From Eledone cirrhosa (taxonomy: Eukaryota), in NCBI GenBank assembly GCA_964016885.1, contig OZ024757.1, positions 33,976,001 through 34,040,000 on the forward strand: a DNA stretch of 64,000 nucleotides, in the 5' to 3' direction. The notes beneath the pieces were generated by a model. That model saw nothing but the letters and a program-made list of their open reading frames with translations. It was not told the DNA's origin and made no database searches. Made by a program: the position numbers and the translations under genes. Of the stretch, positions 13-33,099 are shown piece after piece (the stretch's first letter is position 1; each line of letters begins with the position of its first letter).

Positions 13-124
13 ATAGGAACGAGTAGGACCCCGACGGCTGAGCTCAAGCCGTTTCGACGGCTAATTCCAGAATTACCCGTCGAAACGGCTTGAGCTCAGC
101 CGTCGGGGTCCTACTCGTTCCTAT
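13..124. mobile_element. Fold-back palindrome containing the 3' half of a hammerhead ribozyme (Penelope-like pLTR derivative, family A)
   Basis: ATAGGAACGAGTAGGACCCCGACGGCTGAGCTCAAGCCGTTTCGACGG followed by its exact reverse complement. The + arm reads GAAA(82-85)-CGGCT-tgagctc-AGCCG-TC, i.e. stem III plus a GUC site. Starts in a TA tract; a unique tail runs to ~210. Confidence 0.8.
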
Positions 125-419
125 TACCCACTCTACTACCCTAAGTATTGAGTACTTTGGTGCGTTATGGTCCACTTGCTTCCTTACCACATTTCCTTCG
201 TTACACCATTATATATATATATATATGAGAGTGGATGGTCATGGTTGGATCAGGATTGAGCTGAGGCTAAGCACAGTTGATTCGAAGGCAAACAACAACA
301 ACAACAACAACATCAACATCAACATCAACATCAACAACAACAACCAGTTGTTGTTATTTACATTCTTATGTTATGCATAGCTCTCCACAAATCCAACAGA
401 AATTTGCAGGAATGTCGCT

Positions 420-2030
420 GTGTGTGTGTGTGTGTGCGTCTGTGTGTGTGTGTCTGTGTGTGTGTTTACCTGTACGTAACGACCACGTTCCTGCGTGTGT
501 CAGCGTGTGTTTGTGTTTCCGTGTGGGCAAGTGTATGTTTGTGCGTATTTTTGAGAGAAAATGTGTGTGTGTGAGTGTCTGTGTGTGTGTGTGTGTGTGT
601 GTGTAAGTGTCTATCTAGTGCGTACGTATGCGCCATTCCAGCATGCTTGTCTATATTTATGTGCAAATGCGCACGCGTGTATCTTGCCGGTGCACGTGTA
701 CCGAAATATAAACACGCACATACACACACATATATACACACACACATACACACATATATACACGTATACACGTACGCCAAAAACGGATGCACGTACTGTA
801 ATGCATGTTGTGTGGGAGTGAATGAGTGTGAGAAATAAATCAATGTGCTTGTATGAATGCGCGCGTGTGCGTAAAGATGAATGAACGTGTATATGTATGT
901 ATGCGTGTGTGTATCAGTGAATGTGTGAGTGTGTGTGTATATGAATGTGTGAGTATGTGTGTGTGTATGAGTGTGTGTGTGTGTGAGTGTGTGTAAATGC
1001 ATGTGTGAATGTGTCAATGAATGTGTGACTGTGTGAGAGTGTGTATGTGTGTGAAAATGCATGAGTGTGTCCATGAATGTGTGAGTGTGTAAGTGCATGT
1101 GTGAGTGTGTCCATTAATGTGTGAGTGTGTCCATGAAAGTGTGAGTGTGTGTGTGTGTATATGAGTGTGTGTGTAAATGCATGTGTGAATGTGTCAATGA
1201 ATGTGTGACTGTGTGAGAGTGTGTATGTGTGTGAAAATGCATGAGTGTGTCCATGAATGTATGTGAGTGTGTAAGTGCATGTGTGAGTGTGTTCATTAAT
1301 GTGTGTGAGTGTGTATGTATGTGTGTGTAAGTGCATATGTGTCCATTAATATGTGAATGTGTCCATGAAAGTGTGAGTGTGTCCATGAATGTGTGTGCGT
1401 GTGTGTGTGTGAGTGTCTCCATGAATGTGTGTGTGTGTGTGTGTGTGTAAATGCATATGTGACTGGCCATGAATGTGTGACTGTGTGAGAGTGTGTTCAC
1501 TTAACTTCTATTTCTCCTCATATTTTTCTCGCTTCATTTTCCCTTTACTGCATGTGTCTTTCTCTCTCTCTCTCTCTGCCTATCTCTCTCTCCCACCCTC
1601 TCTATCTATCTACCCCCCTCCCCATCTCTTTCATCCTTTCTCTTTTTATCCCTTTCTTCCGTTTTCTTTTTCTCTCTCTATCTCAAAGATTCATGTATGT
1701 ATGAATATATGTATATATGCATGAATGTATATATGAATATATATATATGTGTGCGTATAAATGCATGTATGTATGTGTATGTATGCATGTATGTGTATGT
1801 GTGTATCTATGTATTTATGTATATATGAATGCATGTATGTATGTACATACGTAAGTACGCATATATGTATGAATATATGTATATATATATATATGTAAGT
1901 ATATATGTATGTATATATGCATGTATATATGCACGTATGTATTATGTATGTATATATGTATTATGTAGGTATATATGTACGTAAGCATGTATGAATGTGT
2001 GTATGTGTGTATCTATGTTTGTATGTATAT
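420..2030. repeat. Degenerate (TG)n, (CT)n and (TATG)n microsatellite-derived tract
   Basis: Direct reading; includes a ~180 bp internal duplication (approx. 950-1130 vs 1150-1300). Confidence 0.9.
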
Positions 2031-2283
2031 TGTATGTCAGGTCACCAGTTGGTGCTACTGGTAACATGTATCCCAGTACAACCTGTCTCATGGTTGGCGA
2101 CTAAACTGGTTGGCGACTAAACTGGCAACCCTACCAAGGTTTCTTGGTGAGGGGGGTGACTTTGGACATCCTGCATGACTAAAAACAAAACCTGTCAAAA
2201 GGCAAAGAAGCTCTTAAGAGTCAATGGCCATCCAAAATCACCGGGAGAGATGACCCCTTAGCCTTTGTCAAGGCAGAATTCTA

Positions 2284-2653
2284 GGAGAAGGAAAACTCTA
2301 ATATAACACCTGCAACCCTGATGGTATCCAATGATGTTGACTTGTTCTTCTTTTTGGTAAATATCATCTTGGTTAAGAGAGTGGGACTGGCTTTGTGCAG
2401 GGCCTTTGCTCACTATAAAAGCTTCACGGCACAGGCGTTGCTTTATATCTGGAGATCTCTCTGCACTTGTCGTCACATGGTACCATGGGCCCAGCACTAT
2501 GTGTCAATAATTGTCACAAGTGTAGTGTTTGTACCAGAGTTTTCAAGTCGCTGGCTGGACTAAAAAGTCACACTCGTTCAGCGCATCGGTAGTGGTTCTC
2601 CTACATGGATATAAAGTAGTGGCCGTACTCGAAAACGAGTTGGCAGCCACCAT
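2284..2653 (+). repeat. Dispersed ~370 bp repeat, copy 1 (resembles an RTE-type LINE 5' region)
   Basis: Near-identical to 18165-18522. Begins GGAGAAGGAAAACTCT, a motif reminiscent of RTE 5' UTRs. Confidence 0.75.
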
Positions 2654-3499
2654 GTATGTATATATGTATGTATATATGTGTGTGTGTATATATATATGTG
2701 TATGTATGTATCTATAAAAGAAACTACGAGTGAATGCATCGATGTGTATATATATGTGTATGTATGTATTTATAAAAGAAACTACGTGTGAATGTATCGA
2801 TGTGTATATATATACATCAGGCATTTATTATCGGCAAAATATACTTATATGGATACACCCATTGATTTGTTCATTTCAGTCTTTCACTCATTCATATATA
2901 TATATATATATATATATGTTTTCTGTTGAGCTCTGCTGATGAATGATATTCCAACCGTGACCATCTCCACTGAAAGTTTTCATGAAATAGTCTTTTAAGA
3001 CTATACAGAGCATTTGATGTTATTCCAAATTGAAGGATAAGTGTTTCAAACTTTGTTTTATCATGAGTTAAAGGTCTATAGATTTTTCCATGGATTTTAC
3101 TAAATTCTGTGGATGAATTTGTATCCTGATTCTCTTTTGAGATGAGTTTGAGTTATTTTTCCTAAATCTTTCGTTAACTACTTTTCCCATCTTGACGTTA
3201 TAGTCGCATATATGTTATAGAATGCCGTTAGCTTCTTGCTAAAACAATCTCTATACGTCTCATTTATATATATATATATATATATATATATATATATATA
3301 TATATATATATATATATATATATATATATATATAATATATATATATATATATATTATATATATATAAATGTAGAAGTTCTATTTAAATTGTTGGGATACA
3401 ACAAGCAAATATTTTTATAACTGATATAAAGTACTCAACAAATATTTGGAGTAAAAATACGATATTAACAAATAGAAACTATATTTATAAAACCATATT

Positions 3500-30908: not shown

Positions 30909-32310
30909 AGACAGTATGTTTTTGCCATACATTAACACACATGCAATACATAATATAGATGTGCGTGCGTGCGTGCGAACACACACACACACACACACAT
31001 ACACACACATACATATACATATACATACACACACACACACATACATACATACATTCACACATACACATATCAACAGTTTGAAAAGGACAAAAAAAAAGTG
31101 CCTGCTTGATTTCATTTCGAAGCAACAGAGATTGTCTGGATAGTAAGTAGTGAAAGGACGGAGAAATTTGAGATTAAATGACAAGCTGGTATAATGTTGT
31201 TTGTCCTCTTAACTGGCTAACTGTAAATATTGTTAGTGTTAAAGTAGTAGAGAGAGAGAGAGAGAGACAGCCAGAGAGAGGAGACTGCAGTGTGTCGTGT
31301 TTGTAACCTGCTCGTTTTTGGCAGTAATATTTATTAACAAGGGTGATTATTAACCAGGGTGATTAAATATCGTGTTGATTATTTGTTATGATGGAAGTTA
31401 GTGTTTATTGTTGTCGTTGATGGTGTTGTTGTTGTTGTTAACCCCACAACACCCACTTGGGAAGAAGACAGCCAAGGACCTAAAGTCCACGTCTATAACA
31501 TCGAAAAATAGAAAAATACACCAGTCTGGCTAACTGTCGGAGTAGACCGATGTTCAAATTTATTCCAAATATGGCCATCACATCTATGACTGATTTGTCC
31601 AATGTGTCCTTCCCCCCCCCTCTCTCACTCACTCACTCTCTCTCTTAAGACGGTAGGGTGGGAATTGAAGGAGATGACGCTGTTATTTCTAACAGGTCAA
31701 ACTACTGTAATGTTTGTTATGAAGATTGTGTATCAATAATTGATGATAAAAACAAACATATTAGAGTTGACACATACATACATACGTGTGTGTGTGTGTG
31801 TGTGTATACGTGTGTGTGTGTATACGTGTGTGTGTGTGTGTGTGTGTGTGTGTGTGTGTGTGTGTGTGTGTATGTGTGTGTGTGTGTGTGTGTATGTGTG
31901 TGTGTGTGTGTGTGTATGTGTGTGTGTGTGTATGTGTGTGTGTGTGTTTTAAAGTCTCTAAGCCAACATACATTTTCGTCGCAGACATTCAATAAAGCTT
32001 TTTATTGATCAAAAATGTTTTAACGAAGTCTAAACTTAACTATTGGCAGAGTTTTGTCGTTTTCTTTCATTCTTTTATTTATTTATGGCATCACGTTTAA
32101 ATGATAATTGTAATTAAATGACAGGTAAAATTCTAATATATATATATATATATATATATATATATATATATATATATATATGCAAAGTTTTATTTAAATT
32201 GTTGGGTTACAACGAGTAAATATTTATAACTGATATAAAAGCACTCAACAAGTATTTGGAGTATATTTACGATATTAAATAAATGGAAACTATATTTATA
32301 AAATCATATT

Positions 32311-32376
32311 TATTTCATTATATATATTTCAGGGATATCATATTAAAAATATGGTATGCCTTCATCAGACAAAATA
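32311..32376 (-). ncRNA. Type I hammerhead ribozyme (family B)
   Basis: Exact reverse complement of 32509-32574. Confidence 0.82.
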
Positions 32377-32508
32377 CAATATAAACAGTCTTATAAATAG
32401 ATAGATTTGACATACCTTACAGCTTCAACTTCCATTTAAAAAGTTTTAAATGGAAGTTGAAGCTGTAAGGTATGTCAAATCTATCTATTTATAAGACTGT
32501 TTATATTG

Positions 32509-32574
32509 TATTTTGTCTGATGAAGGCATACCATATTTTTAATATGATATCCCTGAAATATATATAATGAAATA
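32509..32574 (+). ncRNA. Type I hammerhead ribozyme (family B)
   Basis: tattttgt-CTGATGA-aggcataccatatt-ttt-aatatgatatccct-GAAA-TATATA-TA-atgaaata. Confidence 0.82.
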
Positions 32575-33099
32575 AATATGGTTTTATAAATATAGTTTCC
32601 ATTTATTTAATATCGTATATATATATATATATATATATATATATATATATATATAAGATAAGATGACGTTTGTCAATTCGAATCCACAATGAACTAAAAG
32701 GGAAAGAAGAAAAAAAAAGACAACAAAGAAGAGAATGGCGATTTGGAAAAGAGGCGGTTGTCTTTCTCACGTCAGCACCCACCATGTGTTTAAACAACAC
32801 ACATGTCAATTACTACAAACATGTTATTGGATTCGAAAAAAAATATATATACAAATATAAAAATAAACCTTTAAAAATTCCGAATGACTTCATAAATTAA
32901 TAAGGGGAAAGGCGTTAGAGAGAAGACAGTTATGTGTTAATTCGGATGACGCCTGGCATTGGGATCGGGGTATGGCTAAAGTGAAATATAAAGAGATAGA
33001 AAGGGAAAGAAAGAGAGAGACATGTGTTAGAAAACAGTTTACGCAGGTAACCATGTCAAATTGTGCTACGCGCAGAGCTGAGGTGGTGGTAGTAGTAGA

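Follow-up and report, generated by a model that had tools for sequence, protein, structure and literature searches.

A 64-kb stretch of the 3.0-Gb genome of Eledone cirrhosa (contig OZ024757.1, positions 33,976,001 to 34,040,000; hereafter the window) carries hammerhead ribozyme motifs in or near (TA)n microsatellites, many of them within fold-backs (Table 1). A preliminary description, made from the letters alone, took them for a non-coding, ribozyme-only population moved in trans by the enzymes of Penelope-like elements (PLEs). What are these motifs, and how did they reach their present sites? That interpretation is partly supported. Fourteen of the 18 sites it listed, including all eight that it called complete, are 3' ends (pseudo-long terminal repeats, pLTRs) of PLEs that bear an open reading frame (ORF), so that the idea of a purely non-coding population fails for most of them. 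The true non-coding retrozyme of the window, at 2918-3268, was not on its list. We consider it probable that most of the motifs are 3' terminal repeats of ORF-bearing PLEs and that 2918-3268 is a piece of a retrozyme unit which a PLE enzyme likely copied from circular RNA.

A strict descriptor built on the consensus core of type I hammerheads finds seven motifs in the window (2930+, 3501-, 3667+, 14555-, 14775+, 32311- and 32509+). Dinucleotide-shuffled sequence (3 x 200 shuffles) yields means of 0-0.015 and never more than one. When a bulge or mismatch is tolerated at the base of stem II, 4589- and 15339+ are added, making nine complete motifs against none in 40 shuffles. All nine have the core boxes, stems I-III, U-H at the cut and an open stem I. 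One of them, 2930-3011(+), is new; the other eight are those previously called complete, and every position cited in the preliminary description carries a motif as described. An Rfam scan of the window shows no hammerhead family among the best 150 of 251 matches. The single-strand folds of eight motifs are unexceptional (z -1.9 to +1.0), as expected because stem III is weak and palindromic.

Over all window sites the motifs fall into 11 families (A-K). The earlier count of at least six unrelated families stands for the sites as a whole; it does not carry over to the complete motifs, six of which are one lineage, family A, with three subfamilies in three fold-back insertions. The eight therefore represent five insertions of three lineages. 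The claimed association with microsatellites is seen here too: for 16 of the 19 motif positions a (TA)5+ tract is no more than 150 nt away, which is true of 26% of random positions, and for the remaining three the distance is 188-191 nt. AATAAA, described as the usual neighbor 3' of the cut, is common there and not a rule; it occurs within 45 nt of the predicted cut at 11 of 20 sites, six of them family A. In 20 evenly chosen 10-kb stretches of the genome we find two complete motifs (shuffles 0.18, maximum 2), both family A by sequence, and pieces of Hydra-type ORFs in three stretches. The window, with nine motifs in 64 kb, is thus richer than average, yet the elements are genome-wide. A search for pieces of PLE ORFs within the window itself found none.

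Table 1 Hammerhead-related features of the window (all cuts are predicted)
Position	Strand	Family	Feature	Remarks
13..208	+	B	fold-back, 3' hammerhead half	GAAA at 82, cut after 104
2918..3268	+	K	351-nt copy, 5'-truncated	between two (TA)n tracts; hammerhead 2930-3011, cut after 3005
3367..3774	both	A	fold-back pair	hammerheads 3501-3563(-), 3667-3731(+); left arm long end, right arm short end
3879..4134	-	F	degenerate motif	stem I unpaired; cut 3967
4200..4395	both	C	tail-only fold-back (sequence 3' of cut), no core	84-87% to 14215-14475
4493..4672	-	G	complete hammerhead	motif 4589-4648, cut 4596; long end ~4493, short inverted arm ~4642-4672
4743..4925	-	H	U3-A8 core variant	weak stem I, cut 4870
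13747..13818	+	I	motif with A at core position 4; 3' end of Hydra-type PLE	cut 13792
14211..14478	both	C	two-arm site	minus arm: mutated core (cut 14268), short end; plus arm: tail, long end
14511..14973	both	A	fold-back pair	hammerheads 14555-14619(-), 14775-14838(+); left end short, right long
14986..15667	both	J	complex	complete hammerhead 15339-15383(+), cut 15378
15781..15938	+	D	full core, 61-nt stem II insert	cut 15888; stem II related to C
15985..16255	both	D (subfamily)	two inverted half motifs with tail	cuts 16049-, 16132+; 76% to 15790-15935
18903..18953	-	B	half motif, degenerate	by window sequence comparison
32182..32617	both	A	fold-back pair	hammerheads 32311-32376(-), 32509-32574(+); left end long, right short
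35730..35865	-	E	half motif cut off inside core; pLTR of Hydra-type PLE	cut 35821
46299..46372	+	B	half motif with short fold-back	by window sequence comparison

For the families searched we examined the best-scoring 20-30 of about 500-2000 candidate loci in the genome (L numbers denote retrieved loci). Family A is the clearest case. The fold-back at 3367..3774 matches the two pLTRs of L072 at 96%, and the L072 motif is the same as 3667+ letter for letter. That at 14511..14973 is 96.7% identical to both pLTRs of L022, in which a pLTR is followed by a broken ORF, a 1.1-kb 3' untranslated region (UTR) and a second pLTR. The third, at 32182..32617, matches at 91-93% the pLTRs of L057 and L073, which flank intact 737-aa ORFs. 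About five of 20 family A loci extend far upstream. A genome search with 14770-14880 returns 1312 candidates, and all 40 scored copies are identical over 111 nt; with the N-terminal piece of the L022 ORF as query, 134 copies were scored out of 23,937 first-look candidates, and in many of them a frame of 738-750 codons is open. Among the full-length copies listed, one hammerhead precedes the ATG by about 237 nt and a second follows the stop at a distance of 1.4-2.1 kb. The pLTR forms a partial tandem with the hammerhead inside in L022, L057, L072 and L073, and likewise in L362 of family E. Ninety of 96 tallied family A cores are intact, and position 7 alone varies. Tallies of this kind show selection on the hammerhead core in spreading lineages.

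The family A ORF carries RWR, SDKT, YRDD, CxCX5C, YVG, CxxC and CxH motifs; RWR lies at residues 37-38 and SDKT at 115-117 in both A and E. Its relatives are 30-43% identical and mostly unnamed, three of them from Argonauta hians. Pfam gives no real match for the Hydra-type ORFs and a single-sequence PDB search is also blank, while a profile search returns weak matches to reverse transcriptases (RTs) of retrons and group II introns (E 0.011-0.37). An AlphaFold model of the ORF built from 86 sequences reaches a pLDDT (predicted local distance difference test) score of 91. The best fold matches of this model are telomerase RTs, at Z 17.1 (root-mean-square deviation 2.7, 250 aligned) and Z 16.2. 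The elements thus have a single ORF with a TERT-like RT, the YRDD frames measuring 713-742 aa.

Six further families lead to ORF-bearing parents. Judged by motif features, the seven parent-linked families appear to comprise five of Hydra type (A, B, E, G and I) and two with a Neptune/Nematis-type linker (H and J). Families A, B and E have the CxCX5C linker and C-terminal CxxC and CxH, with no CX2-5CxxC; their Y[IV]G motif is seen by pattern alone. The family B fold-back at 13..208, with its long end at about 205 and an inverted short arm at 13-58, is 98.4% identical to L177, where a 552-aa open frame lacking the RWK/DKT region is followed by about 1.1 kb of UTR and then the full motif; L178 is a second ORF-linked locus. 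By this match 13..208 is the 3' end of a Hydra-type PLE. The family B core is mixed, with U3-A8 in four of seven. The family E site is 84.6% identical to L362; in this family 14 of 20 ORF starts have the motif no more than 260 nt upstream, and there is an intact 713-aa ORF.

Family G, judged by the sequence upstream of its motif, is likewise the 3' end of a Hydra-type PLE. Seven G loci have in common a piece that comprises the C-terminus of the endonuclease (EN) and UTR; its orientation is forward in L171 but inverted in L146, L412 and L429, and no intact G ORF was among the loci retrieved. Two other candidates for the G parent were ruled out. The ORF in L172 belongs to family E, and the G motif stands upstream at none of 30 ORF loci; the 1.5-6 kb of homology upstream of G in L450-L452 is an inserted long interspersed nuclear element (LINE). 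This LINE-like element, with an APE endonuclease and RT, sits at the same (ATT)n spot of the G 3' UTR in L450, L451, L452 and L173, which suggests site-specific insertion into another retroelement. Family I at 13747..13818 is 100% identical to L098, where the same strand carries a Hydra-type ORF whose end is about 980 nt upstream; L136 is a further such locus.

Family H at 4743..4925 is 93% identical to L453, which has an inverted pLTR, a broken ORF at 2477-4421 and the motif at 5417. In L453, L454 and L455 the broken ORF, with DKG, YLDD and CX4CxxC, lies about 1 kb upstream of the motif. The family J complex, which also holds an inverted half copy (predicted cut 15215) and further tail pieces, is 99% identical to L168; the motif follows the ORF end by about 280-310 nt in L165-L169. 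The copies at five of 30 J loci extend upstream by 1.5 kb or more and enter a coding region whose RT has YVDD and which also holds a CX4CxxC linker (at residue 456 in the L165 frame; present too in L455 of family H) and a putative YIG endonuclease. The Pfam GIY-YIG match of family J (E 2e-4, 21.8 bits) is below its cut-off of 22.6, as is RVT_1. The postulated Penelope link is borne out: longer copies of the parent-linked families reach an ORF with RT and a putative GIY-YIG-type endonuclease in the same genome. By their 5' ends, copies in the ORF-bearing families range from a few dozen bases to whole elements, several with intact frames of 713-750 aa.

Some motifs had been called imperfect. This fits 3970-, which is degenerate; 4865- and 13747+ are family-wide forms and not products of decay. 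Of 40 family H copies 37 have the U3-A8 core, and of 23 family I copies 21 have A at core position 4. Family I is very abundant (59 BLAST matches in retrieved loci with the 73-nt piece, 154 incidental matches); a genome search with the 73-nt piece came back empty, a blank that those BLAST matches reveal as an artifact. Either the family has succeeded with an inactive ribozyme, or its core is an undescribed variant. Further hammerhead families occur outside the window (L318, L186, L313 and L128; L061 and L021; L175 and L007); in one of them (L318, L186 and L128) the motif lies about 230 nt after the end of a Hydra-type ORF. There are about 40 distinct motif keys across the retrieved loci.

How do the fold-backs form? 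In each family the 3' ends are fixed at two positions that are 60-100 nt from each other; both lie downstream of the predicted cut, and both abut (TA)n. Relative to the cut these are at +53 to +60 and +146 to +157 in family A, +20 and +100 in B, +38 and +103 in G, and +173 and +240 in J, and the two ends are confirmed in incidental copies. Across 106 loci, 67 have an inverted arm; classified by hand, 57 of them pair a short with a long end, two are long-long and eight are unclassifiable. The asymmetric inverted repeats of the preliminary description are therefore real, and hammerhead elements do produce many short palindromes. Copies truncated at the 5' end, copies with an inverted 5' copy and copies with a tail at one end are all seen. 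At many loci the (TA)n that flanks a PLE end of one family holds an end of another (for example in L210, L212 and L294), and such nesting builds clusters like those at 2900-5100 and 13700-16300 of the window.

Long inverted repeats in TA-rich targets would also be expected of miniature inverted-repeat transposable elements or other DNA transposons with terminal inverted repeats, the hammerhead match being incidental. We regard this as extremely improbable. The arms are unequal, each locus has a different center, the repeats are 3' ends of RT-encoding elements with ORF-linked parents, and the core is conserved with position 7 alone free.

The retrotransposition reading can be put as a series of steps. 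The GIY-YIG endonuclease would cut (TA)n on both strands, and each DNA end would use one of the two fixed RNA sites for priming, in a manner resembling twin priming and helped by short AU-rich pairing. Reverse transcription from the nicked (TA)n would halt early, most complementary DNAs (cDNAs) ending within about 150 nt upstream of the cut, and the cDNAs would be joined tail to tail into short asymmetric palindromes. Every copy spans the predicted cut, so the template was either uncut or cut and religated.

Family K offers a view of the template. The window copy is 100% identical to positions 279-629 of a unit of 629 nt, with 34% GC and a longest Met-started frame of 45 aa. A genome search with 2918-3260 gives 1956 first-look candidates; all 40 scored matches are identical over 343 nt, and many lie 629-631 nt apart. 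The scored matches form 30 separate insertions, all of which we examined. They consist of tandem non-coding units of low GC with no long terminal repeat (LTR), each unit with a type I hammerhead whose stem III is 8 bp long. Insertions are 360-2318 nt long (0.57-3.7 units, head-to-tail), 20 of the 30 exceed one unit and none has an inverted arm. All 29 visible 3' ends coincide, at an AU-rich site inside the unit that lies 263 nt beyond the cut, and (TA)n follows each of them; the 5' ends are scattered and none is at the cut. The circular fold of the unit has an energy of -135 kcal/mol, compared with -112 +/- 6 in 40 shuffles (z -3.7). The motif and the site of the 3' end are both retained in an older subfamily with 83% identity over 415 nt.

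Do the units of one insertion descend from one molecule? In the 14 multi-unit insertions with variants (six variant-free ones were left out), 12 of 24 within-insertion unit pairs share substitutions, as against three of 504 between-insertion pairs; shared variants appear in six of the 14. In L294, L297, L298, L306 and L307, variants private to one insertion are present in all its units. Such sharing is consistent with a single template molecule, in the simplest case a circle, having been copied repeatedly. A K monomer would be released by its own hammerhead, which the 8-bp stem III is predicted to let act without a partner, ligated to a circle and copied for more than one turn from the single priming site 263 nt past the junction. 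Targeting of (TA)n and internal priming point to the PLE families of this window as the probable mobilizer. Template switches at nine K 5' junctions, sought in order to name it, lead to no ORF. The combined mechanism, with priming at two sites by both ends of cut (TA)n and K copied round a ligated circle so that each insertion repeats the variants of its one molecule, has in our judgment about an even chance of being correct.

Could K instead be copied from linear multimer transcripts of tandem source arrays, with no circle and with a hammerhead that is idle or only regulates RNA level? Such transcripts would also yield copies longer than a unit, arrays of at least three units exist, and one of nine Xenopus retrozyme dimers is reported as cleaved in vitro (preprint 10.64898/2026.07.22.740005). 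Variants private to an insertion and present in all its units, however, require a one-unit bottleneck at some generation, and the 83%-identical subfamily conserves the core and stems of K. The K template may have been a linear multimer from an array that passed through such a bottleneck; we think this unlikely. Growth of the arrays at the DNA level after monomer insertion, by tandem duplication or gene conversion as in a minisatellite, would likewise produce variants shared within an array, and is the standard satellite model according to the same preprint. It is very unlikely here: the runs are non-integer, they end at the same 3' base with scattered 5' bases, and the insertions lie on many chromosomes in a family close to 100% identical.

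Several observations weigh against the account of PLE ends and a circular K template. Ribozyme cleavage, transcripts and circles are all predicted from DNA sequence. The opposite strand of K folds almost equally well (z -3.5), the units of the three-unit insertions L202 and L296 share no variant, and K has no sequence tie to any PLE and neither a second 3' end nor inverted arms. The arm counts come from best-scoring loci, and the B and G queries forced the forward arm to be long. Among the retrieved loci no intact parent was found for G, H, I or J, and no parent at all for C, D or F, F having had no genome search of its own. Finally, the 5' ends of short copies cluster by family: in A, 28 of 52 lie between -140 and -101, and between -60 and -21 lie 57 of 80 in B and 17 of 25 in E. 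Plain random truncation does not predict this clustering, which could mean short RNAs or re-mobilized short copies.

The clustering is the strongest remaining support for a different history of the short pieces, namely that they are non-autonomous, ribozyme-only elements transcribed from a pLTR promoter and re-inserted in trans by PLE proteins. A TATA-like box lies about 33 nt before the core in the family E parents. Family C copies with a core begin within about 35 nt of it (among 15 matches listed, some of them duplicates), and the family D motif has 1953 first-look candidates compared with 41 for the 230 nt further upstream. The four listed sites without a parent (3970-, 14268-, 15802+ and 16121+) could still be non-autonomous. 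For the short pieces in general this history is nonetheless unlikely. The fold-back junctions vary between loci, copy length forms a continuum up to full elements in A, B, G, H, I and J, and intact ORFs are abundant. The clustering can also arise from run-off at the 5' end of a full-length RNA, with priming in the upstream pLTR, or from stops at RNA structure.

Candidate parents for C and D were weighed and set aside. The L318 ORF ends in its own, different hammerhead, which rules it out for C, and the Neptune-type ORFs of L316 and L317 end in J-like motifs, which rules them out for D. One tentative piece of Hydra EN lies upstream of family D in L463. Families C (14215-14330) and D (15790-15935) share a self-complementary stem II insert of 60-80 nt. 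The core box of D could be folded off by the 3' side of stem II, to which it is complementary.

Other features of the window and of the retrieved loci are recorded briefly. Positions 22472-27533 are about 5 kb of TA-rich satellite with a 13-nt period and GC down to 7%. A decayed LINE-like RT/endonuclease remnant is recognizable by eye at about 19500-21700 (-). A tRNA-like sequence at 29685-29757 (+) scores 29.5 bits against an Rfam gathering threshold of 29, and is possibly a pseudogene or the head of a short interspersed nuclear element. Positions 2040-2650 and 18160-18520 are near-identical copies of a dispersed repeat also present in L015 and L021. Elsewhere, L403 and L404 (97364500-97384300 of sequence C1) hold at least four head-to-tail PLE units of 4.19 kb with DKG, YLDD, CX4CxxC and YVG and an upstream frame of 474 codons. 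Three of the units have one frame break in common and one has an intact 735-aa frame; the descriptor scan finds no hammerhead in them. They are possibly a multi-turn insertion of an autonomous element.

The bulk of the finding is ordinary for PLE-rich genomes: PLE ends, elements of a known kind. Its value is that these families are young, have intact ORFs and fixed priming sites, and are accompanied by a non-coding passenger whose copies are nearly identical, and thereby supply exact templates and predictions (the priming positions, a template spanning the cut, and different sites for the two DNA ends). The available text of PMC7761336 calls the in vivo role of the PLE hammerhead a mystery, and that of PMC8557442 names an in vitro PLE system as the next task. 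If the proposed mechanism is true, thousands of fresh insertions record a Penelope-type retrotransposition that such sources have so far just proposed, and K together with an intact Hydra-type ORF of 713-740 aa is a ready pair with which to rebuild PLE target-primed reverse transcription in vitro. For repeat annotation it is relevant that PLE ends account for many short palindromes in the TA tracts of this genome.

How does this system compare with those already described? The sources cited below were available to us in part, and the comparisons extend to those parts. Cervera and de la Pena 2014 (PMC4209133) report dispersed single motifs as probable truncated PLEs, pairs of motifs on opposite strands 100-700 bp apart, the U3-A8 variant and a circle model. 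Their motifs, like ours, have a palindromic stem III and an unpaired base before stem II; the position-4 A of family I is not found in that text. Unlike there, parents are here traced for seven of 11 families and the pairing of short and long ends is counted. The circular-template route was thus already proposed (PMC4209133, PMC7761336), and within the portions of the PLE and retrozyme literature cited here there is no insertion-level evidence of copying round a circle.

Circular RNAs of non-LTR retrozymes are described from coral, mussel and axolotl, and PLEs are proposed there as mobilizers (PMC7229834, PMC7761336), and Li, Clavereau and Pollet 2026 (preprint 10.64898/2026.07.22.740005) tie retrozymes to pLTRs in Xenopus. 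The words 'octopus', 'cephalopod' and 'microsatellite' are absent from the main text of PMC7229834, whose supplements may list such families, and PMC13282606 does not contain the word 'ribozyme'. K resembles these metazoan retrozymes in that it is non-coding, has a GC content below 45%, lacks LTRs, holds a single type I hammerhead in every tandem unit and co-occurs with PLEs. It differs in its 629-nt length (about 170-400 nt in the invertebrates of PMC7229834; 51-972 bp in the 2026 preprint), in its dispersed short concatemers in (TA)n, in its one fixed priming site and in that no homology to a PLE pLTR was found; it is known here from DNA alone.

Among the PLEs themselves, those of the Neptune/Nematis group have a CX2-5CxxC linker (PMC8557442). 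Families J and H are like them in the CX4CxxC linker, a C-terminal YIG motif, DKG/DKS, Y[VL]DD and a pLTR hammerhead, the likeness being one of motifs. The closest match for the remaining parent-linked families is the Hydra clade of C-terminal EN+ PLEs, with RW[K/R], DKT, CxCX5C, CxxC, CxH and (TA)n targeting (Craig et al. 2021, PMC8557442). Families A, B and E, and in part G and I, are like it in the single ORF, the motifs, the pLTR hammerhead, the (TA)n targets, 5' truncation, an inverted 5' copy and a one-end tail. The tails here are 60-100 nt, compared with 30-40 bp in Hydra, and family A units are about 4 kb, because their 3' UTRs are 1.4-2.1 kb, whereas Hydra elements are generally below 3 kb (PMC8557442). 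The clade includes Hydra-1_Obim of Octopus bimaculoides, 2507 bp long and found in (TA)n (PMC8557442), and beside the Hydra clade the copy numbers in Eledone appear very high.

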